NCBI GenBank assembly: GCA_964016885.1
Contig: OZ024761.1
Coordinates: 31,000,001 to 31,064,000 of the forward strand
Length of the DNA: 64,000 bases
Direction: 5' to 3'
DNA from: Eledone cirrhosa
Taxonomy: Eukaryota
In this document: one piece after another, positions 1 through 63,308 of the stretch
Position numbering within the stretch: the stretch's first letter is position 1
Layout: each line of letters opens with the position of its first letter
Program-made: the position numbers and the translations under genes
Notes under the pieces: model-generated
The model's input: the letters and a program-made list of their open reading frames with translations, nothing else
Databases searched by the model: none
What the model was told of the DNA's origin: nothing

Positions 1-3000
1 GCTATGTGCTTTTACGATTCTCTAGAGAGGCCGGAAGATAGGTAAATATTGCTGATGAGTTGTAACAACAACGAAACTAGTTCAATATTCCTTGTCTGGC
101 TTTCTGGAGAATAGAGGAAAGGTGTTTCCTCAAAAACCAGTATGACTCTAAAAACCGGTTTGTCTGTGTGTTTACATACGGAATAGCTGGCCACTCACAG
201 TAAAGTGACCAGTGAAAAAAACTTGGTACATCTACATATGTATACGTGTGTGTATTCATATACATACTAGTATTTCAGTATACATATATGGATGTACATC
301 TTTAACTTAATTGTTTAAGCGTCAGTCATACAAAAGTGAGTTACAAACGAAACGAAATTTAATTTCGTTTCGTTATTTGTTTTTATCGTCTCCGTTGAAC
401 CGGTACTTACTCACACTCTATGCAAATTAGTCTGCCCACTACTAATTTTCATAGAAAAAGCATATAACGCTATGTGCTTTTACGATTCTCTAGAGAGGCC
501 GGAAGATAGGTAAATATTGCTGATGAGTTGTAACAACAACGAAACTAGTTCAATATTCCTTGTCTGGCTTTCTGGAGAATAGAGGAAAGGTGTTTCCTCA
601 AAAACCAGTATGACTCTAAAAACCGGTTTGTCTGTGTGTTTACATACGGAATAGCTGGCCACTCACAGTAAAGTGACCAGTGAAAAAAAACTTGGTACAT
701 CTACATATGTATACGTGTGTGTATTCATATACATACTAGTATTTCAGTATACATATATGGATGTACATCTTTAACTTAATTGTTTAAGCGTCAGTCATAC
801 AAAAGTGAGTTACAAACGAAACGAATTTAATTTCGTTTCGTTATTTGTTTTTATCGTCTCCGTTGAACCGGTACTTACTCACACTCTATGCAAATTAGTC
901 TGCCCACTACTAATTTTCATAGAAAAAGCATATAACGCTATGTGCTTTTACGATTCTCTAGAGAGGCCGGAAGATAGGTAAATATTGCTGATGAGTTGTA
1001 ACAACAACGAAACTAGTTCAATATTCCTTGTCTGGCTTTCTGGAGAATAGAGGAAAGGTGTTTCCTCAAAAACCAGTATGACTCTAAAAACCGGTTTGTC
1101 TGTGTGTTTACATACGGAATAGCTGGCCACTCACAGTAAAGTGACCAGTGAAAAAAACTTGGTACATCTACATATGTATACGTGTGTGTATTCATATACA
1201 TACTAGTATTTCAGTATACATATATGGATGTACATCTTTAACTTAATTGTTTAAGCGTCAGTCATACAAAAGTGAGTTACAAACGAAACGAAATTTAATT
1301 TCGTTTCGTTATTTGTTTTTATCGTCTCCGTTGAACCGGTACTTACTCACACTCTATGCAAATTAGTCTGCCCACTACTAATTTTCATAGAAAAAGCATA
1401 TAACGCTATGTGCTTTTACGATTCTCTAGAGAGGCCGGAAGATAGGTAAATATTGCTGATGAGTTGTAACAACAACGAAACTAGTTCAATATTCCTTGTC
1501 TGGCTTTCTGGAGAATAGAGGAAAGGTGTTTCCTCAAAAACCAGTATGACTCTAAAAACCGGTTTGTCTGTGTGTTTACATACGGAATAGCTGGCCACTC
1601 ACAGTAAAGTGACCAGTGAAAAAAACTTGGTACATCTACATATGTATACGTGTGTGTATTCATATACATACTAGTATTTCAGTATACATATATGGATGTA
1701 CATCTTTAACTTAATTGTTTAAGCGTCAGTCATACAAAAGTGAGTTACAAACGAAACGAAATTTAATTTCGTTTCGTTATTTGTTTTTATCGTCTCCGTT
1801 GAACCGGTACTTACTCACACTCTATGCAAATTAGTCTGCCCACTACTAATTTTCATAGAAAAAGCATATAACGCTATGTGCTTTTACGATTCTCTAGAGA
1901 GGCCGGAAGATAGGTAAATATTGCTGATGAGTTGTAACAACAACGAAACTAGTTCAATATTCCTTGTCTGGCTTTCTGGAGAATAGAGGAAAGGTGTTTC
2001 CTCAAAACCAGTATGACTCTAAAAACCGGTTTGTCTGTGTGTTTACATACGGAATAGCTGGCCACTCACAGTAAAGTGACCAGTGAAAAAAACTTGGTAC
2101 ATCTACATATGTATACGTGTGTGTATTCATATACATACTAGTATTTCAGTATACATATATGGATGTACATCTTTAACTTAATTGTTTAAGCGTCAGTCAT
2201 ACAAAAGTGAGTTACAAACGAAACGAAATTTAATTTCGTTTCGTTATTTGTTTTTATCGTCTCCGTTGAACCGGTACTTACTCACACTCTATGCAAATTA
2301 GTCTGCCCACTACTAATTTTCATAGAAAAAGCATATAACGCTATGTGCTTTTACGATTCTCTAGAGAGGCCGGAAGATAGGTAAATATTGCTGATGAGTT
2401 GTAACAACAACGAAACTAGTTCAATATTCCTTGTCTGGCTTTCTGGAGAATAGAGGAAAGGTGTTTCCTCAAAAACCAGTATGACTCTAAAAACCGGTTT
2501 GTCTGTGTGTTTACATACGGAATAGCTGGCCACTCACAGTAAAGTGACCAGTGAAAAAAACTTGGTACATCTACATATGTATACGTGTGTGTATTCATAT
2601 ACATACTAGTATTTCAGTATACATATATGGATGTACATCTTTAACTTAATTGTTTAAGCGTCAGTCATACAAAAGTGAGTTACAAACGAAACGAAATTTA
2701 ATTTCGTTTCGTTATTTGTTTTTATCGTCTCCGTTGAACCGGTACTTACTCACACTCTATGCAAATTAGTCTGCCCACTACTAATTTTCATAGAAAAAGC
2801 ATATAACGCTATGTGCTTTTACGATTCTCTAGAGAGGCCGGAAGATAGGTAAATATTGCTGATGAGTTGTAACAACAACGAAACTAGTTCAATATTCCTT
2901 GTCTGGCTTTCTGGAGAATAGAGGAAAGGTGTTTCCTCAAAAACCAGTATGACTCTAAAAACCGGTTTGTCTGTGTGTTTACATACGGAATAGCTGGCCA

Positions 3001-3658
3001 CTCACAGTAAAGTGACCAGTGAAAAAAACTTGGTACATCTACATATGTATACGTGTGTGTATTCATATACATACTAGTATTTCAGTATACATATATGGAT
3101 GTACATCTTTAACTTAATTGTTTAAGCGTCAGTCATACAAAAGTGAGTTACAAACGAAACGAAATTTAATTTCGTTTCGTTATTTGTTTTTATCGTCTCC
3201 GTTGAACCGGTACTTACTCACACTCTATGCAAATTAGTCTGCCCACTACTAATTTTCATAGAAAAAGCATATAACGCTATGTGCTTTTACGATTCTCTAG
3301 AGAGGCCGGAAGATAGGTAAATATTGCTGATGAGTTGTAACAACAACGAAACTAGTTCAATATTCCTTGTCTGGCTTTCTGGAGAATAGAGGAAAGGTGT
3401 TTCCTCAAAAACCAGTATGACTCTAAAAACCGGTTTGTCTGTGTGTTTACATACGGAATAGCTGGCCACTCACAGTAAAGTGACCAGTGAAAAAAACTTG
3501 GTACATCTACATATGTATACGTGTGTGTATTCATATACATACTAGTATTTCAGTATACATATATGGATGTACATCTTTAACTTAATTGTTTAAGCGTCAG
3601 TCATACAAAAGTGAGTTACAAACGAAACGAAATTTAATTTCGTTTCGTTATTTGTTTT

Positions 3659-3660
<2 letters not shown>
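1..3660 (+). repeat. 468-bp tandem satellite, about 7.8 near-identical units, open at the left window edge; hammerhead-containing (retrozyme/PLE pLTR-like)
   Basis: Unit start GCTATGTGCTTTTACG recurs at 1, 469, 937, 1405, 1873, 2340, 2808 and 3276. The differences seen are single-base homopolymer indels. The last unit is cut at about unit position 385, where (TA)n begins. Confidence 0.97.
45..89 (+). ncRNA. Minimal type I hammerhead ribozyme, one per satellite unit (cores at 52, 520, 988, 1456, 1924, 2391, 2859, 3327)
   Basis: Stem I AATATTG(45-51)/CAATATT(83-89); core CTGATGA(52-58); stem II GTTGT-AACA-ACAAC; GAAA(73-76); palindromic mini stem III AACTAGTT; predicted cleavage after GUU at 82. 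Confidence 0.88.
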
Positions 3661-8770
<5,110 letters not shown>

Positions 8771-11220: not shown

Positions 11221-11289
11221 ACTTAAGATTGTAAAGAAACATGCAAGAAAGTAGTGTAGATATGGTATGTAGGGTGTGATGTGGTGTCG

Positions 11290-11820
11290 TGTAGTGTAGA
11301 TTAACATGAAGGGTGGTGTGGTGTAGTCTAGATATAATGTGTAAGGTGGTGTAGAGTAGTGTAGATATAGCATGTAGTGGGGTGTGGCGTGGTATAGATA
11401 AAACATGTAGGGTGGTGGTGTGTAGTGTAGATGTAACATGTAGGGTGGTGGTGTGTGGTGAAGATATAACATGTAGGGTGGTGGTGTGTAGTGTAGATAC
11501 AACATGTAGGGTGGTGGTGTGGTATAGTGTAGATATAACATGTAGGGTGGTGGTGTGCAGTGTAGATATAACATGTAGGGTGGTGGTGTGGCGTAGTGTA
11601 GATACATGTAGGGCGGTGTGTAGTGTAGATATAACATGTAGGGTGGTGGTGTGTAGTGTAGATATAACATGTAGGGTGGCGGTGTGTAGTGTAGATATAA
11701 CATGTAGGGTGGCGGTGTGTAGTGTAGATATAACATGTAGGGTGGCGGTGTGTAGTGTAGATATAACATGTAGGGTGGTGGTGTGTAGTGTAGATATAAC
11801 ATGTAGGGTGGTGGTGTGGT
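11290..11820. repeat. 33-bp minisatellite (GTAGTGTAGATATAACATGTAGGGTGGTGGTGT)
   Basis: Tandem units. They produce the MLYLHYTPPPY-type repeat ORFs in several frames. Confidence 0.92.
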
Positions 11821-12164: not shown

Positions 12165-13290
12165 TTTCTGGGTCTACCTACTCTGTAACTTCCGTCAATT
12201 TTGATCGCCCTGCACTTTTTTATACAGCTATCGTCTTTCATGCGCATCATGTGACCACACCAATGTAATCTTCTCTCAAGTAAACAGCATCTGATCCCTC
12301 TTATTCCTAATTTCTCATTTAGTTCATTTATGTTTTGCCGTTTGCGTATATTACTATTACATATCCAACGGAGCATGCATGTTCCTTTCCAGTCTGTGCA
12401 GTTCCTCTGCACACAATGCCTATGTCTCACTGCCATGCAACATCGCTGTTCATATACAGGCATCATACAATCTGCCTTTCATTTTTAGAGAGAAACCTTT
12501 TGTAGCCAACAACGGTATAAGCTCTCTGAACTTATTCCATCCCGTTCTGACTCTGGCTACTGTACTTTCAGAGCACCCTCCACCACTGCTGATTTTGTCA
12601 TCCAGGTAACGGAAAATGTCCACTATTTCTATAGAACCATCTGGGCAATGGAAGGAGCTAGTATCCTGTGGGCACTTGCTACTTATTGCACCTGAGCATC
12701 GGCCACATATATAATCTACGTTCTTAGATAGCTTACCTGTGATCCCACTACATCTTTTATGTACCCATAGTTTGCATTTGGGACATAAAATGGAATTTCT
12801 AACTACTCCTTTCCTACACACTGAGCATGGCCATTTCCCAGAGGGCACCTGTGCCCTATTTTCCTTTCTACATACTAGAACTTTAGTCTTAGACAAGTTA
12901 ACTTTAAGGCCTTTTGATTCTAGGCCATGTTTCCATGTTTAGAATTTCTTCTCTAGTTCAGCCATAGATTCAGCTATGAGAGTTAGATCATCAGCATATA
13001 GAAGTTCCCATGAGCAACCGGTCTTAAACTCCTCTGTTATAGCCTGAAGGGCAATAATAAATAGGAGGAGCTAAGGACAGAGCTCTGATGAACACCAACT
13101 TTTACGCTAAATTCTTCACTATATTCATTGTTAATTCTAACCTTGCTGACTGTTTCTTTATACATGGCTTGTTAGCTCTCACAAGCCATTCATCTACACC
13201 TAGTTTTCTAAGAGCCCACCAGATAATGGAGCAGGGACTCTGTCAAAGGCTTTCTCCAAGTCAACAAAAGCTAAGTAGAGGGGTTTACAT
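12165..13290 (-). pseudogene. Decayed RTE LINE copy related to 7014-8375
   Basis: Frameshifted pieces [26 protein letters not shown]...WPCSVC, FRYL, ERRLHWCGH. Confidence 0.92.
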
Positions 13291-35177: not shown

Positions 35178-35689
35178 CACATAATTATGTATATATAAAT
35201 ACACATACACATATAACCCTCACCACCACATTTATCACCAAACATATACATCTATCAGTCTTTTCGTTGGTCTCTGTTGCTGCATATTAGTTCCACTCCC
35301 TAACCTCTATTCCCTACCCACCCTCCCCTCTACCTACCCCTTACCCAGCCCCCTTAACCTCTACTTTCCACCACCACCATCATCCTCTAGTGTACCCTCC
35401 AATCCCTACTCACCACTCCTACCCTTCACCCACCCTAACCCTCAACCCTACCCTGTACCCCCTTCATCTACATAGCCATCTCCTTTTCCTCCTGTATGGC
35501 ATATAGCCTCCTTGCCCCCTACCTCGCCACCCAGTAAATTTACTCTTCTTTCTTATTTGGTTCTTTTATTTGTATCCACCCCCAACCCCAATTTTTGTCA
35601 TTCCCCAACACCACCACTTCAAAACAGTATCACCGCCACTGCCACTATCCCCATCACTGTTGCAGTCACCACCATTGCCACCACAATCA

Positions 35690-36592
35690 TCACCACTATC
35701 ACCAGCACCACCACCAACAACACCAACACATTCCTCACCACTATTGCCACCACAATCATCACCAGCAACAACACCAACACTGCTAACCACAATCATCACC
35801 ACCACCACCACCACCACCAACACCAACACGATCTTCACAACTGCCACCACAATCATCACCACCATCACCAGTACCAGCACCAGCACCACCACCACCAGTA
35901 CCACCACCACCACCACCACCAACACAATTTTCACAACTACCTCCACAATCATCACCACCACCACCAGCACCACCAACACCACCACCAACACCAACACGAT
36001 CTTCACAACTGCCACCACAATCATCACCAGTACCAGCACCAGCACCACCACCACCAGTACCACCACCACCATCACCAACAACACAATCTTCACAACTACC
36101 TCCACAATCATCACCACCATCACCAGTACCAGCACCGCCACCACCACCACCACCACCACCACCACCACCACCAACACCAACACCAACACCACCAACAACA
36201 CAATCTTCGCAACTGCCACCACAATCATCACCACCACCACCAGTACCACCACCACCACCACCACCAACAACACAATCTTCACAACTACCTCCACAATCAT
36301 CACCACCATCACCAGCACCAGCACCACCACCACCACCACCACCAGCACCACCACCACCAACAACACAATCTTCACAACTACCTCCACAATCATCACCACA
36401 ATCACCAGCACCACCACCACCAGCACCACCACCACCAACAACACAATCTTCACAACTACCTCCACAATCATCACCACCATCACCAGCACCACCACCACCA
36501 TCACCAGCACCACCACCACCACCACCAGCACCACCACCACCTCCAACACAATCTTCACAACTACCTCCACAATCATCACCACCATCACCAGT

Positions 36593-36623
<31 letters not shown>

Positions 36624-39600
36624 CCACCAACACGATCTTCACAACTGCCACCACAATCATCACCATCAACAACACCAACATCAACACCACCAACACAATC
36701 CTCACCAACACTGCCACCACAATCACCACCACCACCACCAGTACCAACAACAACAACAACACCAACACACTCTTCACCACCACAATCATCACCCTCAACA
36801 CCACCAACACAACCATCACCACCATCACCAGCACCACCACCACCAACATAATCATCACCACCATCAACAGCACCAGCACCACCACCACCAACACCACCAC
36901 CACCACCAACACCAACACTGCCACACCAATCATCACCACCACCACCACCAACACTGCCACACCAATCACCACCACCACCACCACCACCACCAACACTGCC
37001 ACACCAATCACCACCACCACCACCACCAACACTGCCACACCAATCACCACCACCACCAACACTGCCACACCAATCACCACCACCACCACCACCACCAACA
37101 CTGCCACACCAATCACCACCACCACCACCACCACCAACACTGCCACACCAATCACCACCACCACCAACACTGCCACACCAATCACCACCACCACCACCAC
37201 CACCAACACTGCCACACCAATCACCACCACCACCACCACCAACACTGCCACACCAATCACCACCACCACCATCACCAACACTGCCACACCAATCATCATC
37301 ACCACCACCACCACCAACACTGCCACACCAATCACCACCACCACCACCACCACCAACACTGCCACACCAATCACCACCACCACCACCACCACCAACACTG
37401 CCACACCAATCACCACCACCACCACCACCACCAACACTGCCACACCAATCACCACCACCACCACCACCAACACTGCCACACCAATCACCACCACCACCAT
37501 CACCAACACTGCCACACCAATCATCATCACCACCACCACCACCAACACTGCCACACCAATCACCACCACCACCACCACCACCAACACTGCCACACCAATC
37601 ACCACCACCACCACCACCACCAACACTGCCACACCAATCACCACCACCACCACCACCACCAACACTGCCACACCAATCACCACCACCACCACCACCAACA
37701 CTGCCACACCAATCACCACCACCACCATCACCAACACTGCCACACCAATCATCATCACCACCACCACCACCAACACTGCCACACCAATCACCACCACCAC
37801 CACCACCAACACTGCCACACCAATCACCACCACCACCACCACCACCAACACTGCCACACCAATCACCACCACCACCACCACCAACACTGCCACACCAATC
37901 ACCACCACCACCATCACCAACACTGCCACACCAATCATCATCACCACCACCACCACCAACACTGCCACACCAATCACCACCACCACCATCACCAACACTG
38001 CCACACCAATCACCACCACCACCACCACCACCAACACTGCCACACCAATCACCACCACCACCACCACCAACACTGCCACACCAATCACCACCACCACCAC
38101 CACCACCAACACTGCCACACCAATCACCACCACCACCACCACCAACACTGCCACACCAATCACCACCACCACCATCACCACCAACACTGCCACACCAATC
38201 ACCACCACCACCACCACCACCAACACTGCCACACCAATCACCACCACCACCACCACCACCAACACTGCCACACCAATCACCACCACCACCACCACCACCA
38301 ACACTGCCACACCAATCACCACCACCACCACCACCAACACTGCCACACCAATCACCACCACCACCATCACCAACACTGCCACACCAATCATCATCACCAC
38401 CACCACCACCAACACTGCCACACCAATCACCACCACCACCACCACCAACACTGCCACACCAATCACCACCACCACCACCACCACCAACACTGCCACACCA
38501 ATCACCACCACCACCAACACTGCCACACCAATCACCACCACCACCACCACCACCAACACTGCCACACCAATCACCACCACCACCACCACCAACACTGCCA
38601 CACCAATCACCACCACCACCATCACCAACACTGCCACACCAATCACCACCACCACCACCACCACCAACACTGCCACACCAATCACCACCACCACCACCAC
38701 CAACACTGCCACACCAATCACCACCACCACCACCACCACCAACACTGCCACACCAATCACCACCACCACCATCACCAACACTGCCACACCAATCACCACC
38801 ACCACCACCACCACCAACACTGCCACACCAATCACCACCACCACCACCACCAACACTGCCACACCAATCACCACCACCACCACCACCACCAACACTGCCA
38901 CACCAATCACCACCACCACCACCACCAACACTGCCACACCAATCACCACCACCACCATCACCAACACTGCCACACCAATCATCATCACCACCACCACCAC
39001 CAACACTGCCACACCAATCACCACCACCACCACCACCAACACTGCCACACCAATCACCACCACCACCACCACCAACACTGCCACACCAATCACCACCACC
39101 ACCATCACCAACACTGCCACACCAATCACCACCACCACCACCACCACCAACACTGCCACACCAATCACCACCACCACCACCACCAACACTGCCACACCAA
39201 TCACCACCACCACCACCACCACCAACACTGCCACACCAATCACCACCACCACCACCACCAACACTGCCACACCAATCACCACCACCACCATCACCAACAC
39301 TGCCACACCAATCATCATCACCACCACCACCACCAACACTGCCACACCAATCACCACCACCACCACCACCAACACTGCCACACCAATCACCACCACCACC
39401 ACCACCACCAACACTGCCACACCAATCACCACCACCACCACCACCAACACTGCCACACCAATCACCACCACCACCATCACCAACACTGCCACACCAATCA
39501 TCATCACCACCACCACCACCAACACTGCCACACCAATCACCACCACCACCACCACCACCAACACTGCCACACCAATCACCACCACCACCACCACCAACAC

Positions 39601-40335
39601 TGCCACACCAATCACCACCACCACCACCACCACCAACACTGCCACACCAATCACCACCACCACCACCACCAACACTGCCACACCAATCACCACCACCACC
39701 ATCACCAACACTGCCACACCAATCATCATCACCACCACCACCACCAACACTGCCACACCAATCACCACCACCACCACCACCACCAACACTGCCACACCAA
39801 TCACCACCACCACCACCACCACCAACACTGCCACACCAATCACCACCACCACCACCACCACCAACACTGCCACACCAATCACCACCACCACCAACACTGC
39901 CACACCAATCACCACCACCACCACCACCACCAACACTGCCACACCAATCACCACCACCACCACCACCAACACTGCCACACCAATCACCACCACCACCATC
40001 ACCAACACTGCCACACCAATCATCATCACCACCACCACCACCAACACTGCCACACCAATCACCACCACCACCACCACCACCAACACTGCCACACCAATCA
40101 CCACCACCACCACCACCACCAACACTGCCACACCAATCACCACCACCACCACCACCACCAACAGCAACAATGCCCCCACAACCACCACCACCAACACAAT
40201 CCTCACCACCACTGTCACCCCAATCATCACTGCTACTATCTCCATCACAAACACCACCATCATAACATCGTCATCGTTGTTGACACCATCATCATCGCCA
40301 TCATCGTCGTCATCATCATCATCATCATCATCATC
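35690..40335. repeat. CAC-rich low-complexity region with a 27-39-bp minisatellite (AACACTGCCACACCAAT(CAC)n) at about 36910-40160
   Basis: Many tandem units differing in the number of CAC triplets. Confidence 0.95.
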
Positions 40336-41189
40336 ACAACACTATAGAACTGAACTAATCCCTAACTATTCCTGATTATGATAAGATAATAAGTGATGGA
40401 GGTGGTTCTATGGTTGAAATGTGAGTATGAAGTCATCATGCCTAACCCTAACCCCTTAGCATTTAAACCGGCCATATCCGGCCAGAATTCTCTCACTTCT
40501 TTCTGTTTAAACCAGCCATAACCGTCTGCTCATACTTATGTTAAGGTATTGTTCTCAAAATAAATTATATCGAAATCTGATAGATTCGATGTTATGTGAG
40601 CTAGTTATGTCCGGCCAGAATTCTCTCACTTCTTTCTGTTTAAATCAGCCATAACCAGCTGCTCATACTTATGTTAAAGTATTGTTCTCAAAATAAATAA
40701 TATCAAAATCTCATAGATTCGATATTATGTGAGGTAAAGTGTTTACTTTGAAAATACAATAGTAAATATAGAGTAATGTAAATGCTAAAGGGTTAAAGGA
40801 GTGACACGAGATGACAGCTCCGATACTATGGGCTTGTGGTTAGAATATCTCAGGAAAGAATTACTGGACAGATTATTACGAGCAAAGCCAACCAACAAGA
40901 GACCAAGTGTTAAACCCTGAGTGGTTAGATAACATCCATGAGCTTGGCTGGTCACGCTTGGGGATCCAGCTGAATCAGCTGGAGATGGTTGCTTCTAAAA
41001 GGATCCGCTGGAAAGAGTGTTGAAGGATTCTGCCCCCACAACCCTCTCAGGAATAAGTGGGTGAAGAAGAAGAAGAAGACTCCTACACTCAGTTTTCGTA
41101 TGTAGTTGACTTGTGATTATTGAGGCACTCATTGTATTAACCTATTTGATACCAACCCAGCTGAAACCAGCTCTGGTTCTATGAAATAA

Positions 41190-41900
41190 AACCACTCATT
41201 TAAAAGGGTTCCTATTTAAACCTTTTAGTACTTTGTCAACCAAAACTGCTCTCACAAAACCACCCATTTTAAAGAGTTCCTATCTAAACCTTTTAATACT
41301 TTGTCAACCAAAACTGCTCTCACAAAACCACCCATTTTAAAGAGTTCCTATTTAAACATTTAATACTTTGTCAACCAAAACTGCTCTCACAAAACCACCC
41401 ATTTTAAAGGGTTCCTATTTAAACCTTTTAGTACTTTGTCAACCAAAACTGCTTTCACAAAACCACCCATTTTAAAGAGTTCCTATCTAAACCTTTTAAT
41501 ACTTTGTCAACCAAAACTGCTCTCACAAAACCACCCATTTTAAAGGGTTCCTATTTAAACCTTTTAGTACTTTGTCAACCAAAACTGCTCTCACAAAACC
41601 ACCCATTTTAAAGAGTTCCTATTTAAACCTTTTAATACTTTGTCAACCAAAACCACCCATTTTAAAGGGTTCCTATTTAAACCTTTTAGTACTTTGTCAA
41701 CCAAAACTACTCTCACAAAACCACCCATTTTAAAGAGTTCCTATCTAAACCTTTTAATACTTTGTCAACCAAAACTGCTCTCACAAAACCACCTATTTTA
41801 AAGGGTTCCTATTTAAACCTTTTAGTACTTTGTCAACCAAAACTGCTCTCACAAAACCACCCATTTTAAAAAGTTCTTATTTAAACATTTTGGTACGTTG
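41190..41900. repeat. 68-bp minisatellite, about 10 units
   Basis: CAAAACTGCTCTCACAAAACCACCCATTTTAAAG... recurs at 41241, 41309 and onward. Confidence 0.92.
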
Positions 41901-42859
41901 TCATCAAATGCTGTCCCTGGTTCTATGAAACAAAACCATCCAGTTTAATAGGCGTGTGTGTGTGGTATTAACTGTAGTTTAATAGGTGCGTATGATGTCA
42001 ACTTCTCGACCAAACACTTAAAATAATTCTGACAAAAATACACAAATTCCAACACAAAATGCCAACCACACAAGATGATGTGTGACAATGGTTTACAATT
42101 GAACAGAAATTTAGTTGTTTTATGTGAAATTATTAGAGCAAAATAACATCCTGCTTATGGAATATTGTAAAAAAAGTTAATATTTTTTATGTGTTTGCCT
42201 TTCATATATAAACGTCTGGTCATTTCCTTGACAGGAAATATCATGTTATTAAGTTTGAAATAGCAGGATATCAAGAGAAAAATTGATCACATAGGTTAGA
42301 GGGTTCAGTTTTTGGCTGTTGTAGATTTTTTGGGGAAAAACCTGTAGAAATAATTCACAAATATAAGCAACAAGGAAAAAAAAATTCTTTTGTTACCGTA
42401 TTTTGGCTTAGTGGTTAGAGCATTGACCTTGCAATCGAAAGGTTGTGAGTTCAATTCTCAGACCGGGTGATGTGTTGTTTCCTTGAGCAAGACACTTTAT
42501 TTCACATTGCTCCAGTTTACTCAGATGTAGAAATGAGATGATAGGGACTGGGGTCCCTATCATTCCACTGCAAAGTGGTCGTGGAGGTGCCACGGCAAAA
42601 AGCATCCAGCACTCACTGTAAATGAGGTTGGTGTTAGAAAGGGCATCCAGCTGTAGAAATCAAGCCAGAATCAGTTCCCGTCCCACCCTTGCAAGCAGGG
42701 AAAAGCGGACGTAAAATGAAATGATGAATGATGATGAAACTGCCTACAGATTTAAAATCATTTTGAAAATAATCAAGAATTTGAATGGATTTAGTAATAT
42801 AACTAACTTTCTTTATTGTGTTGTATCAGATGAAAGAATGGTATTTAACTAATGTATTG

Positions 42860-44395
42860 GTACACGATGGGGCCCACCCACAGCCCCGGCGGACAGAATG
42901 GAGAAGGCGTTTCCCCAGAGGACGGCAAGGGAGACGTGCTGGAAAATCCACTCCAACTCACGGGGCTCACACCTGCAGCTGGCCAGCTCAGCGCCTATGG
43001 TGGTGAGTAAGGAGGTAGCCCTGGGGCCGAGGACACCAGAGGTTTCCACTGCCAGGGGAACAACCACAAACCTGTCGGAGAGCGACCGGTATTTGAGGAG
43101 TTTGGCCTCGTCAGCCCGACGTGCAGCAGAACCTGGGTCAGTCGCAGACTGCACCAGGTTGCGGCTACAGAAAGTGTCGTGCAAGTGGCATCCCAGGCGA
43201 GGGGTTTGCCACCGCAGAACGGGAAGATGGTCATGCCATCTGGCCTTTTGCCGTCCCCTCGATCCAGCCCCACCGGCTCGAGCTGGGAAGGGAATCCTGC
43301 AGCATCCAAGCCATGCTTAATGACCTTGTTGAGGGCAGTATGGCGTGGAATGCGGCCGGCACTGTGGCGACAGGAAAGTGGGTGGAGGTCGAAAGAGTCC
43401 ACGGTGGAACTGCAGTGACATTGGTGTGGCTGGCAGATCCGGAGGCCAAGCCTCAGGGAAACGCCGATTCGTAGGCTATGGTTGTCTAGCTGTGTGCCAG
43501 TGGAGAAGGAGGGTAGAGCATGGATCCAGGCACCACTGTGGGGTTTGGAGGCCACACGAAAACAAGCAAGGAGGTGCTGGTCGAGCTGGCGCGTGAGCCT
43601 GTCTGAGGCCAGGCTGCACTGGATGGTATCCCAAGTGCGTTGGGGGGACTTGACGTCAACAGGGGGAGAAGGAGGAGGGACGTCTACTGGGCTAAGTTCC
43701 AGCCGGTCCCACGTCTCACAGGCGGCCTCACGTTCTCTGAACACAGAAGGTTCTGTTGTGTTTTGAAGAACCCTGCTGACGAGGACGCGGCACGAGGTTA
43801 CAGACGAAAGATACACCGGCAAAGCTAGTGAGATCGGAGACCGGAGGCCTAGGCCACCATACCTGACCGGTAAAGTGACCTGTTGCCACCCTATGTCGTC
43901 AAACTTGCGTTGCATATCCCCTCGGCTGCTGCTCGGATACAAGTATCGAGGTCAGCGAGGAGAGATGCCTGGGTGTAGCATGGAGCGCTGTGGAGTGTAT
44001 AGAGGAGCTTCGGCATGGCGAAGCAGTTCCTCAGCAGAAAAAGAGCTGGGTGGCCGTCAATCAAGCCCAGTCGGCTTGTGAGAGTCTGGAGCTGTTGAAG
44101 CCTGGACCTGATGGTGGAGCGGATGGCCGGCGGGTGGATTGGTGACCCGAGGATGAGGACATCCTCTTTGGGGGTCACCTGAACCTGGCGGAGAATGGAC
44201 CGCACGTCCAAGATGGAGGCTGGAAAGCTCGAGCATCGAGGCTGACGTTCACCACCTCCGACTTGGCCGAGTTGACCTGGAGGCCGATTCTCGCCAGGGC
44301 AGGAATCACCGATTGAAGGTCTTGGCAGACTGTCCGTACAGGCCCGCCCAACGTAGCATCATCCAGATACCAAACGTTGAGAGGGGCCGTGATAC
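42860..44395 (-). mobile_element. 5'-truncated, frameshifted CRE-like non-LTR retrotransposon (RT, Zn knuckle, restriction-like endonuclease)
   Basis: WYLDDATLGG (RT), GLQVNSAKSE, LPVRYGGLGL, CHC..HPLSC..RH..LN, RPDG..AWDAT and VPLAVETSGVLG across several frames. GC-rich island. Confidence 0.88.
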
Positions 44396-49588: not shown

Positions 49589-50707
49589 TCATTTTCTGGA
49601 ATCTTTCACCACTAATTCCTTAAATCCTGTTTTCTCATCGAATTCCCGAGTGAATGTAAGTCCTTGACATTCCCCGATGACCACTTCAACTGTAGTGTAG
49701 ACAATGAGATTCCCAAACACATGACCACCAACAACTTGTCCTTCTCCATCACTAAGGGACATATGAAGATGGTTATCATCAGACAGCGTTCCCACCAATG
49801 ATACAATTTCAAAATGGCCTTCGTAATCTTTCACCTATCAAGAATAAAACAAATCAAGTGTCATAAAGTGTTGTAGTTTGCTATAAACATTGTGGAATAT
49901 GAAATACAAATATAACTAAGAAATAAGTTTGGTTATTTGGAAGCCTGACAATGAGTGTAAGATACAAGTTCCAAGCATGGCTATGACAGACCAATAAAAG
50001 AAAAGTGACCCAGCACAGCTGCAGTCTAATGATTGAAACCAGTAAAACAATAGTGCCCCAGGATGGCCAGTCTAATGACTGAAACCAGTAAAAGAATAGT
50101 ATCCCAGCATGGCCACAGTCTAAATACTGAAACCAATAAAAGAACAATGCCCCAGCATGGCTGCAGTCTATTGATTGAAACTAGTAAAACAATAGTGCCC
50201 CAGGATGGCCATAGTCTAAGGACTGAAACCAATAAATGAATAGTGCCCCAGGATGGCCACAGTCTAAATACCGAAATCAGTAAAACAATAGTGCCCCCGC
50301 ATGGCCACAGTCTAATGACTGAAACCAGTAAAACAATAGTGACCCAGCATGGCCACAGTCTAATGAGTGAAACCAGTAAATGATTGGTGACCCAGCATGG
50401 CCGCAGTCTAATGACTGAAACAAGTAAATGAATAGTGCCCCAGGATGGCCACAGTCTAATGACTGAAATCAGTAAATGATTGGTGACCCAGCATGGCCAC
50501 AGTCTAATAACTGAAACCAATAAAAGATCAATAAAATAGGTTTACCGTAAAACTGTTAGCCATTCTCAAACGAGCTTTAGTTAAGCTCCCGACAGCAGTT
50601 ACAATGAAAGGACTTTTCAGTTGATTTTCTTGGACAAAATCTTTCAAAGTAGCAACCAATTCCTGGCCAGGTTTGACCCGCAGAGCATAGCATTTCATGT
50701 CACACAT
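49589..50707 (-). CDS. PPC/DUF296-domain protein, about 135 aa, two coding exons (50546-50707 and 49589-49834)
   Basis: Exon A MCDMKCYALRVKPGQEL...IVTAVGSLTKARLRMANSFT|GTAAAC. TTGATAG|exon B VKDYEGHFEIVSLVGTLS...HLHMSLSD..GQVVGGHV...VYTTVEVVIGE...FDEKTGFKEL. Phase-0 GT-AG intron 49835-50545. An acceptor at 50717-50718 implies a further upstream exon. Confidence 0.9.
49960..50525. repeat. About 59-bp intronic minisatellite derived from a SINE 3' end
   Basis: Tandem CCCAGCATGGCCACAGTCTAATGACTGAAACCAGTAAAA units. A single related motif occurs at about 12005-12060. Confidence 0.85.
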
Positions 50708-50791
50708 CTTGTTGGCCTGGAAAATAACAACAGTAACAACAATGACAACAGTATATATAAACCACCAGTAGAGTGTGTGTGTGTGTATATA

Positions 50792-50856
<65 letters not shown>

Positions 50857-50981
50857 TCATCATCATCATCATTTTACGTCTGCTTTTCCCTGCTTGCAAG
50901 GGTTGGACGGGTCCTATTCAGCACAGCATCTCTCCACTTGTCACGGTCCTTCGTCATATACACATATCCATATATACATAC

Positions 50982-51825: not shown

Positions 51826-52210
51826 ATGTATGTATGTGTGTGTGTGCGTATGCATATATGTATGTATTTACATGTATGAATATGTGGTCGGGGTGGAGGT
51901 GATACTAATACTGCAGAATGACAAATGCAGTTCTTGAGATGTTGGCCAAAAAATTCTATTGCAGCTGTAAATTATATTGTTTCACTTTTAGCAGAAAAAA
52001 GATGGTTAAAAGAGTTCCAAGTATTTTATTATGCGCATTTCAAAAACAAATATCATCATGAGATGATATCTGCGTTCTCATCAGATAAAATAGGGATACA
52101 TGATATGAAGCTTAAAAAACACTTGTGAATAGTGAAGTTTTAAATCAACATATGAAAAATAATTTAAGATTGATGTATGATATTGGGAAAAAGTGAGGGG
52201 GGGGGGGGGT

Positions 52211-53509: not shown

Positions 53510-54456
53510 ATCATCATCATCATCATCATCATCAACGTTTAACGTCCGTGTTCCATGCTTGCATGGGTTTGGACGGGGGTAGTCCCACTTGAGGCAAGAG
53601 TGATTGTCTTGCTCGCATAGGACTGTCTGGCAGGTTTTCTACAGTTGGATGCCCTTCCTAACACCAACCACATTTACAGTGTGGGTCTGGGAGGTTTTTA
53701 CCGTGTTGCCTACACGGCCACATTACAGCGTGGACTGTGTGTTTTTTTGTCGTGACACCTACACGATCTCATTTGTTTCGGCCTGGATGGCGCGGCACCA
53801 ACATAACTTTACATAGAACGGGGTGGTGTGGATGGGGTGGGGGTGGTGGCGGGACGGGGTGTATTTTGTTAGAGATGCCTACTGGCAAGGCGGGTCTTCT
53901 CTGTTACTGAGTACCGCCAAAGGTCTCGGTCCAGTGACATTGTCTTGGAGAGGTGTAAGTGTGTGAGGTCGGAGTTTATCAGCTCATCCCAGGTTTTTCT
54001 AGGTCTGCTTATTCCGTGGCTACCGTCTATCTTCATTGCCCTGCACTTTGTTATACAGCTATCGACTTTCATGCGCATCACGTGTCCATACCAACGCAGC
54101 CTTCTCTCGAGTAAACAACATCTGATCCCTCTTATCTCTAATTTTTTCCTTAGTTCGTTTATGCTTTGCCGTTCACGTATATTACTGTTACACATCCAGC
54201 GGAGCATGCAAGCTTCGTTCCTCTCTAGTCTGCGTATATCCTCTGCACACAATGCCCAGGTCTCACTACCATGCAACATTGCTGTTCGTATGCAGGCATC
54301 GTACAACCTGCCTTTCATTTTTAGGGAGAACCCTTTAGCAGCTAATAGTGGTATAAGCTCTCTGAACTTTTTCCAACCAGTTCTGACTCTAGCTACAGTA
54401 CTTTCAGAGCACCCTCCCCCACTGCTGATTTTATCGCCCAGGTAACGGAAGCTGTC

Positions 54457-54460
<4 letters not shown>
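53510..54460 (-). mobile_element. 5'-truncated RTE LINE, nearly identical to 7797-8765
   Basis: VDSFRYLG...TEKTRL matches the first copy almost residue for residue. A short deletion spans the stop codon. The 5' end abuts (TA)n. Confidence 0.95.
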
Positions 54461-54492: not shown

Positions 54493-55029
54493 ATACTTTG
54501 GGAGGGTCATGTTGCCAATAAGAAACACACGCACCAGTTGCTTTCACTTCAATTTATTATAATAAATTTATAATAAATTTATAAATTTATAAATTTCTGG
54601 TTGGTTGGTTGGTTGGTTCCACAACCAGATAGTTGTTTATATATAGTCATAGTTCTTTCGTCACACGCTCTGTGACCTCTTCAGTGACTGGGGATTCCTT
54701 TCTTTGTTTCTGTGCCTCTCCTTTGTTCTGTCCTACGCCTTCTGTGCCTCTCCTTTGTTCTGTCCTACGCCGTTTTGTGGCGTAGGACAGAACAAAGGAG
54801 AGGCACAGAAACAAAGAAAGGAATCCCCAGTCACTGAAGAGGTCACGGAGTGTGTGACGAAAGAACTATGACTATATATAAACAACTATCTGGTTGTGGA
54901 ACCAACCAACCAACCAGAAATTTATAAATTTATAAATTTATTATAAATTTATTATAATAAATTGAAGTGAAAGCAACTGGTGCATGTGTTTCTTATTGGC
55001 AACATGACCCTCCCAAAGTATAACAATAT
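54485..55029. repeat. Palindromic element with about 250-bp arms and a hammerhead in each arm
   Basis: Plus strand: AGTCA-CTGAAGA(54834-54840)-G-GTCAC..GTGAC-GAAA-GAAC-TA-TGACT. Mirror copy at about 54645-54690. The left arm has a 32-bp tandem duplication. Confidence 0.88.
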
Positions 55030-55081
55030 CGGTTTCAACACACGATTTCAGATAAAGAATCTTGCCAAACAAATTCAGAAA

Positions 55082-55115
<34 letters not shown>

Positions 55116-55191
55116 CGAAGGAAACGTGGGAAGGAACCAGGTGGACCATAATGCACCAAAGTACTCAATACTTAGGGTAGTAGAGTGGGTA

Positions 55192-55310
55192 ATAGGAACA
55201 AGTAAGACCCCGACGGCTGAGCTCAAGCCGTTTCGACGGCTAATTCTGGCGTCCAGAATTAGCCGTCGAAACGGCTTGAGCTCAGCCGTCGGGGTCTTAC
55301 TTGTTCCTAT
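55192..55310. repeat. Perfect palindrome made of two 3' halves of a hammerhead
   Basis: Centre CTGG-CGT-CCAG. Each strand reads ..GCCGTC-GAAA-CGGCT-TGAGCTC-AGCC-GTC-GGGGTC. Confidence 0.85.
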
Positions 55311-55393
55311 ATATATATATATATATATACAAAATGAACTTAAAACGGTAAGTTCTTGTTTTGGGATGTCAATATTTATAAAACAATTTTTGT

Positions 55394-55452
55394 ATTTTAT
55401 CTGATGAGGGCGTACCAAAATTTTGGTACCCTTGAAATATATATAATAAAAT
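55394..55452 (+). ncRNA. Type I hammerhead; inverted duplicate at about 63150-63210
   Basis: ATTTTAT-CTGATGA(55401-55407)-GGGCGTACCAA/TTGGTACCCTT-GAAA-TATATA-TA-ATAAAAT. Confidence 0.8.
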
Positions 55453-55586
55453 AAATATGGTTTTATAAAGACAGTTTCCATGTATTAATATCATTGATAT
55501 TATACTCCAGAAAAAAATCTTGTAGAGTGCTTCGTATCTGTTATAAATGAATTTGTTGAATAACCAACAAATTAAATATCTCTTTG

Positions 55587-55662
<76 letters not shown>

Positions 55663-62983: not shown

Positions 62984-63016
<33 letters not shown>

Positions 63017-63271
63017 AGCAAAGAGATATTTAATTTGTTGGTTATTCAACAAATTTATTTATAACAGATTCGAAGCACTCTACAGGATTTTTCTGGAATA
63101 TAATATCAATGATATTAATACATGGAAACTATCTTTATAAAACCATATTTATTTTATTATATATATTTCAAGGGTACCAAAATTTTGGTACGCCCTCATC
63201 AGATAAAATACAAAAATTGTTTTATAAATATTGACATCCCAAAACAAGAACTTACCGTTTTAAGTTCATTT

Positions 63272-63308
<37 letters not shown>

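Follow-up and report, generated by a model that had tools for sequence, protein, structure and literature searches.

The window analysed here is a stretch of 64,000 nt from Eledone cirrhosa (contig OZ024761.1; G000:C22:31000001-31064000 of the 3.0-Gb genome), and it opens on a tandem array of 468-bp units (1..3661, + strand, 7.8 units in the window), each of which carries a hammerhead ribozyme motif. At the sequence level the repeat meets the definition of an animal retrozyme of the type without long terminal repeats (non-LTR). The units start at positions 1, 469, 937, 1405, 1873, 2340, 2808 and 3276; seven are full (467-468 bp each), a partial eighth ends at 3661, and single-A indels were the sole differences among them when unit 3 was taken as the reference. 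The original prediction had the array starting at position 1, which did not hold: the true start lies 736 bp upstream, where the array is joined to an inverted arm. The window contains the outer part of a + arm of 9.4 units (G000:C22:30999265-31003661), and the - arm of 6.9 units (C22:30996056-30999268) lies upstream of the window. The two arms are joined via a 4-bp overlap and both outer ends lie in (TA)n; a (TA)n microsatellite of ~3.3 kb (3662..7015, no strand assigned) flanks the long end of the + arm, as defined below.

The unit is non-coding, low in GC (0.357) and without LTR-type flanks (primer-binding site and polypurine tract not searched for), and the array contained no stop-to-stop frame of at least 120 aa apart from frames created by the TA tract. 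The circular monomer was predicted to fold at -150.6 kcal/mol (z -9.6 against 60 shuffles), with 66% of it paired.

As originally predicted, the eight units are near-identical and each has a type I hammerhead (8/8). In unit 1 it spans 39..92 (+) with the predicted cut after 82, and the CUGAUGA core lies at 52, 520, 988, 1456, 1924, 2391, 2859 and 3327. Stem I of unit 1 pairs 45-51 with 83-89 (7 bp) and is extended past a bulge by 39-41/90-92; stem II pairs 59-63 with 68-72 (5 bp) and is followed by GAAA; stem III pairs 76-77 with 80-81 (2 bp) around a UA loop, and the GUU triplet ends at 82. The self-complementary ACUAGU of stem III (76..81, +) could form a 6-bp helix between two hammerheads, with a computed duplex energy of -4.8 kcal/mol. 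Among 5000 dinucleotide shuffles of the unit, none gave a hammerhead with equally long stems and one gave a loose one; no hammerhead was found on the unit's minus strand. The proposed check against the Rfam hammerhead models gave a mixed result: Hammerhead_HH9 matched at 37.7 bits (E 7.7e-8), yet under its cut-off of 52, and at gathering score there was no Rfam match in the window. Matches to Rfam microRNA, snoRNA and sraA models at the E-value level were rejected, as they arise from hairpins and fall under their cut-offs.

Covariation was examined in 25 variants, chosen from 35 distinct ones and spanning two related families (A, the family in the window, and its sister family B, described below). 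The conserved fold has a 6-bp stem I (a seventh pair in 8/25), a stem II of four covarying base pairs plus an invariant U-A, and an invariant stem III. The 7-bp stem I and 5-bp stem II claimed for the array are therefore present in the window, but the longer stems do not extend across the 25 variants; nor does a longer palindrome, because position 17 varies and only the 6-mer ACUAGU is conserved. Paired cells made up 89.8% of the alignment compared to 26-46% in slid controls, and both-sided changes were seen at seven pairs, namely the four covarying pairs of stem II and three pairs of stem I. Position 17 was U, A or C, never G, in 35/35 variants, although the search pattern left it free. Together with the position-17 data, this covariation indicates that the hammerhead is under selection. 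A compensatory stem II change was also seen in a family A variant (L151-L174, G000:C1:5738093-5752747), and a GUC cleavage triplet in the insertions L039:94-6028 and L197 (in L039, in 12/12 covering units). The canonical metazoan form, with a 6-bp stem I, 4-bp stem II, 2-bp stem III and short palindromic loop, works as a dimer (PMC4209133), from which we infer that the present hammerhead may act as a dimer through ACUAGU.

Copies of the unit lie on many contigs, frequently with 99-100% identity. A 21-mer taken from it gave 6,730 exact genome matches (0 for its control); a pattern for the hammerhead core, which includes family B, gave 40,324 (8 for control); and a pattern for the tail described below gave 37,675 (250 for control). 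Family B has units of 422-472 bp with 68% identity to family A over aligned columns. Family A is young: copies on separate contigs reach 100% identity. The earlier label of satellite was thus too modest for what is a dispersed mobile family, while the identification as a retrozyme was supported by the hammerhead-bearing tandem units, the dispersal and the locus-private variants. Minimal hammerhead motifs of the type found in Penelope-like elements (PLEs) also recur in many of the fetched loci.

The arms of the insertions end at two fixed places in the unit, either at 382-387 (long end) or at 308-317 (short end). In unit 8 of the window the short-end site (unit 312-317; 3587..3592, +), at which the opposite arm of an insertion stops, is followed by a 69-nt tail (unit 318-386; 3593..3661, +). 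This tail includes a T5 run and a hairpin of 13 bp (3621-3649) and closes at the long-end site, 3661. A position-ordered sample was drawn of 32 loci along C1:0-54.5 Mb, comprising 21 two-armed and 10 single-armed insertions and one uncertain pair that was left out. One long and one short end were found in 20/21 of the two-armed insertions (0.5^20, ~1e-6). In a best-hit sample of 27 loci (18 two-armed with both ends, 8 single-armed by BLAST, and one that ran off the stretch examined; the end of L041 was read by eye), the same combination was found in 17/18. Twenty family B loci were also inspected: two ends were present in nine, all with one long (363) and one short end (301-308), one of them ragged, and the remainder were single-armed, cut or broken. 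An apparent family B end at query position 50 was discarded as an artefact of the search cut-off. Contigs of a public run (X1), which may come from the same organism as the assembly, showed the unit giving way to TA repeats at the equivalents of window 1721 and 1790 (unit 317 and 386). X1 was among four runs compared, which consist of contigs of unrecorded kind and carry no information on expression; the runs listed as containing the unit included none of RNA.

Target-site duplications were unreadable at these insertions because both flanks are (TA)n. Most insertions in the position-ordered sample had arms of 1-3 units, and some single-armed loci had a second arm of a few bases. Either arm could be the longer: at L173/L174 the short-end arm had ~30 units compared to 0.7 in the other arm, and in an insertion on C3 the long-end arm had 26.8 units compared to 9.0. 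In the best-hit sample the inner ends clustered near unit 197-204 and 455-468, both predicted hairpins; the clustering was less clear in the position-ordered sample.

Units differed by 0.71 substitutions within an arm, 0.79 between the arms of an insertion and 1.88 between loci, which indicates one template per insertion. Six loci each have a private variant that all covering units of the two arms carry (up to 18/18). Only 1/53 inner ends (read by hand in the position-ordered sample; one further end abutting an N gap was dropped) lay at the cleavage site, unit 83, so the arms run through that site. The template would therefore have been circular or uncleaved, and insertion from linear cleaved monomers was rejected. 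Since private variants are fixed across arrays of 12-18 units, rolling on a monomer circle is favoured, and the retrozymes of coral, mussel and axolotl are described as yielding abundant circles (PMC7229834).

PLE insertions are described as having (TA)n targets, a truncated copy in inverted orientation and a tail confined to one of the ends (10.1101/2021.04.23.441226), and in an anole PLE studied in vitro the tail is bounded by two internal start sites of the reverse transcriptase (RT) near a stem-loop (PMC11167929). Mobilisation by a PLE RT, which had been proposed for the array, was supported here by the (TA)n targets and by two fixed 3' ends, each on its own inverted arm, along with the dispersal and the locus-private variants. 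The genome contains PLEs that have RT and GIY-YIG domains, and they too end in (TA)n at two positions. Judged by this footprint, mobilisation by a PLE enzyme is very probable; the case rests on the footprint because none of the 31 PLE 3' regions compared shares sequence with the retrozyme. The unit itself has no RT and GIY-YIG open reading frame (ORF), which rules out an autonomous PLE, and at L024 a retrozyme arm and the PLE ORF that it adjoins proved to be separate insertions.

Each full unit also contains a promoter-like motif, TATGCAAATTAG (418..431 in unit 1, +), which is also the 5' side of a hairpin predicted at 417-455, and a TATA-like box 44 bp past it (461..468, +). The predicted transcription start is near 25-29 of the unit that follows, at the base of the hammerhead's outer stem. 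The motif corresponds to the element at -77 to -79 of the host U6, U6atac and RNase MRP promoters and matches one host U6 promoter at 14/14 positions. It was found in 7/12 U6 loci (three distinct promoters), 1/6 U6atac loci and 1/1 MRP locus; in the other 5/12 U6 loci the upstream region is replaced, and 5/6 U6atac loci lack the motif. It was absent from 24/24 U1/U2 upstream regions, and a plain RNA polymerase II (Pol II) promoter of the small nuclear RNA (snRNA) type was rejected for this reason. With a weight matrix built from the five distinct motif-bearing promoters (three U6, one U6atac and RNase MRP), families A and B scored 17.2 and 20.6 bits, left-out host promoters 11.9-18.7 bits and eight U1/U2 regions 1.6-5.8 bits; the level of A and B was reached in 0/242 genomic tiles and 0/1000 shuffles. 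Two features of the host genes were noted alongside. In a tandem U6 cluster (L056, L057, L059-L061; G000:C19:31.79-31.83 Mb) the upstream element is replaced in 5/10 fetched copies with the TATA box kept, and the U1/U2 promoters (L062-L085) differ from the U6-type element in sharing AATTA near -88, TCAGT near -56 and, near -30, an AT-rich box. The promoter-like motif, family B, the inverted arm and the tail had no place in the original prediction.

The explanation that we favour for the whole, with a probability of about 0.7, is a young non-autonomous retrozyme mobilised in trans by a PLE. Its steps are of unequal strength. The U6-type motif and TATA-like box at the end of one unit would, as a somewhat favoured possibility, start transcription near 25-29 of the next. 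Hammerheads would quite probably cut the read-through RNA at 82/83, presumably as dimers via ACUAGU, and the released 468-nt monomer would contain its own upstream promoter; its ligation to a circle is moderately supported. The PLE RT/GIY-YIG protein would then, with high probability, cut (TA)n and prime both DNA ends at internal sites flanking the tail hairpin, the first end at unit 386 and the second at 312-317. Each cDNA would circle the template 0.1 to ~30 times, the inner cDNA ends would be joined into a large imperfect palindrome of two tandem arms, and some arrays may have expanded locally afterwards.

Several observations weigh against this explanation. Two insertions break the pattern of ends: L193 in the position-ordered sample ends at unit 101, and L040 in the best-hit sample has two short ends. 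An autonomous PLE with a similar terminal repeat or tail was found neither among 11 PLE 3' ends near arrays nor among 20 GIY-YIG loci of the 150 listed; similarities in these 31 regions, a small part of the genome's PLEs, were confined to nearby retrozyme copies and simple repeats. The covariation may reflect few independent events because the sequences are related. A single monomeric circle in particular does not readily yield the periodic variants of a 27-unit arm or the sporadic variants that recur in the two arms of L037 and of L026; these call for multimeric templates, for conversion or for expansion at a later time. The anole PLE worked on unprocessed RNA in vitro and could dispense with the hammerhead (PMC11167929), and 8/9 Xenopus retrozyme dimers are reported not to have cleaved (10.64898/2026.07.22.740005).

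The last points bear on the closest alternative, in which a PLE inserts from uncleaved multimeric read-through RNA, the hammerhead acts slowly or later, and long arms derive from homogeneous source arrays and local expansion. The anole enzyme acted mainly on unprocessed RNA in vitro, the 2-bp stem III and GUU triplet are weak, the shared sporadic and periodic variants fit a multimer, and arms crossing the cleavage site are predicted by a multimer as well as by a circle. A linear template, however, only shortens arrays, yet private variants are fixed in 12/12 or 18/18 units with <0.2% divergence within an array; most sampled arms are of 1-3 units, and the circles of coral, mussel and axolotl also speak for the monomer, so we regard this alternative as unlikely. 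A second arm made by fold-back, or a DNA-level rolling circle (Helitron- or foldback-like) with the short end as an endonuclease cut, would account for arms that share variants and for junctions with the same or adjacent inner ends (L207 292/292, L031 446/446, L049 336/335, L203 346/343). Most junctions nevertheless join unrelated positions, the longer arm can be either one, as at L173/L174 and in the C3 insertion, and a DNA-only route leaves selection on the ribozyme unexplained; the probability of this route is low. Lower still, and close to negligible, is that of an ordinary satellite grown by unequal crossover or an assembly or concatemer artefact. Near-perfect identity within the window, some higher-order periodicity and a palindromic structure, which long-read artefacts can produce, would suit it, whereas private variants on many contigs, ends that differ between the arms, asymmetric arms and the same two ends in run X1 do not. 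The artefact that had been named as a possible refutation of the array was accordingly not upheld.

The promoter is weighed separately. A working promoter at the motif and TATA-like box is moderately favoured over the view that 418-431 is an RNA-hairpin arm or a generic octamer and that the RNA comes from passive read-through, a view we consider quite possible but the weaker of the two. In families A and B alike the motif pairs with 443-455, and its spacing from the TATA-like box is 44 bp (A) or 43 bp (B) compared to 47-49 bp in host genes. The distance from the TATA-like box to the hammerhead also varies by subfamily (57, 46 and 38 bp), and the inner ends show no build-up at the predicted start (3/53 at 30-39). 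T-runs of T4, T5 and T4 in A and of T6-T7 in many B copies (T4 only in the L040 unit) could stop RNA polymerase III (Pol III), as host terminators are T5-T10; the longest immediately precedes the long end. According to a review, promoters seem to be missing from metazoan retrozymes (PMC7761336). All of this counts against the promoter. On the other side stand the 14/14 match to a host U6 promoter, the TATA-like box downstream of the motif in all subfamilies seen, and the retention, in family A and the L040 B unit, of the promoter's C where it mismatches in the hairpin; the newt and schistosome repeats are moreover cited as having internal promoters (PMC2220036, PMC6765202). That Pol III is the polymerase overall is a tentative suggestion, held at below even odds.

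A SINE-like reading (SINE, short interspersed nuclear element) would go further, but we consider it rather doubtful. The retrozyme would be a parasite that avoids losing its upstream promoter (U6-type, Pol III) through the circular permutation made by the ribozyme, since the RNA circle would keep this external promoter with it. A PLE dimer would prime both strands of a (TA)n break at two different internal sites of the circle, both arms would roll, palindromes of up to ~17 kb would arise in one event, and template switches between retrozyme families, such as that from A to B at L040, would provide for recombination. At that locus (L040:5317-6906, G000:C3:124.4 Mb) one arm changes from A to B at ~10 shared tail-hairpin bases and continues for ~3 B units to the short end of B; this suggests that the template was switched or that recombination followed later.

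Compared to the animal non-LTR retrozymes (PMC7229834; 10.64898/2026.07.22.740005), the family has the same non-coding tandem units, a GC content under 45% (~36% here) and a canonical type I hammerhead in each unit, together with a highly self-paired predicted circle, tens of thousands of copies and coexisting PLEs. Its 468-bp unit is longer than the 170-400 bp of PMC7229834 and within the 51-972 bp of 10.64898/2026.07.22.740005. The inverted arms, two fixed ends, (TA)n targets and candidate promoter of this family are not reported in the text seen of either source; the words 'inverted' and 'microsatellite' have 0 occurrences in that of PMC7229834. In Xenopus (10.64898/2026.07.22.740005), 24/57 retrozyme families matched transposable elements, 21/22 of which were PLEs, whereas no homology to PLE terminal repeats was found here in the 31 PLE 3' regions compared.

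With PLEs (Penelope/Poseidon, Neptune, Naiad) the family shares partial tandems, an inverted 5'-truncated copy, a tail on one end, the (TA)n bias, a type I hammerhead with a palindromic stem III and two start sites near a stem-loop. It differs in the lack of an ORF, a tail of 69 nt (59 in family B) rather than 30-40, up to ~30 units per arm, and a canonical 6/4/2-bp hammerhead instead of the minimal PLE form. Newt satellite 2, as cited second-hand (PMC2220036, PMC6765202), is also a tandem hammerhead repeat; its palindromic stem III is weak, and its internal promoter is of the snRNA type and reported as Pol II, whereas the motif here matches host Pol III type-3 genes and not U1/U2. The Schistosoma Sm-alpha hammerhead SINEs are described as using Pol III, with the tandem promoter of one unit transcribing the next (PMC6765202). 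The elements compared here differ in promoter type. The Sm-alpha promoter is tRNA-type, in contrast to the upstream U6-type element of this family.

Other features of the window lie beyond the array. Fragments of long interspersed nuclear elements (LINEs), 5'-truncated and with RT motifs, were seen at 7016-8375 (+), which begins at the far side of the TA tract, 12450-12938 (-) and 53869-54460 (-); we take them to be RTE-like. Broken non-LTR retrotransposon frames at 42850-44358 (-) resemble an RT and a restriction-like endonuclease. A CAC-rich minisatellite of 4.5 kb (35667-40212) has long open frames in several phases, and further minisatellites lie at 11281-11818, 41188-41903 and 49990-50527. 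A possible coding exon at ~50790-50917 (+; starting MCDMKCYALR) resembles a PPC/DUF296-type protein. Minimal PLE-type hammerheads of other families occur as short copies beside (TA)n at 51990-52200 (-), 55340-55600 (+) and 63015-63275 (-). A PLE terminal-repeat 3' end like those of L024 and L027, ending in (TA)n, lies at 54880-55085, and a (TA)n-flanked element of ~190 bp with a long perfect internal palindrome at 55116-55308, with copies in L027, L038, L113, L121, L191 and L192.

The open literature (Repbase, Dfam, supplements and subscription journals being outside its scope) gave no account of the family, nor of inverted retrozyme insertions with two kinds of end, nor of any retrozyme that contains a U6-type element; a catalogue entry for the repeat may exist already, for example among the invertebrate retrozymes in the supplements of PMC7229834. 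The earlier link to PLEs consisted of co-occurrence and terminal-repeat phylogeny (PMC7229834; 10.64898/2026.07.22.740005), and the insertions described here would be genomic evidence for the so far hypothesised PLE mobilisation of animal retrozymes. Because the family is young and numerous, the reaction can be read from its insertions, and the two start sites on either side of a hairpin, each serving one DNA end, would give exact coordinates for PLE priming on a circular template. The candidate promoter, which can be mutated, offers a testable answer to what transcribes retrozymes. In this genome, retrozymes may also be a source of multi-kilobase palindromes and tandem arrays.

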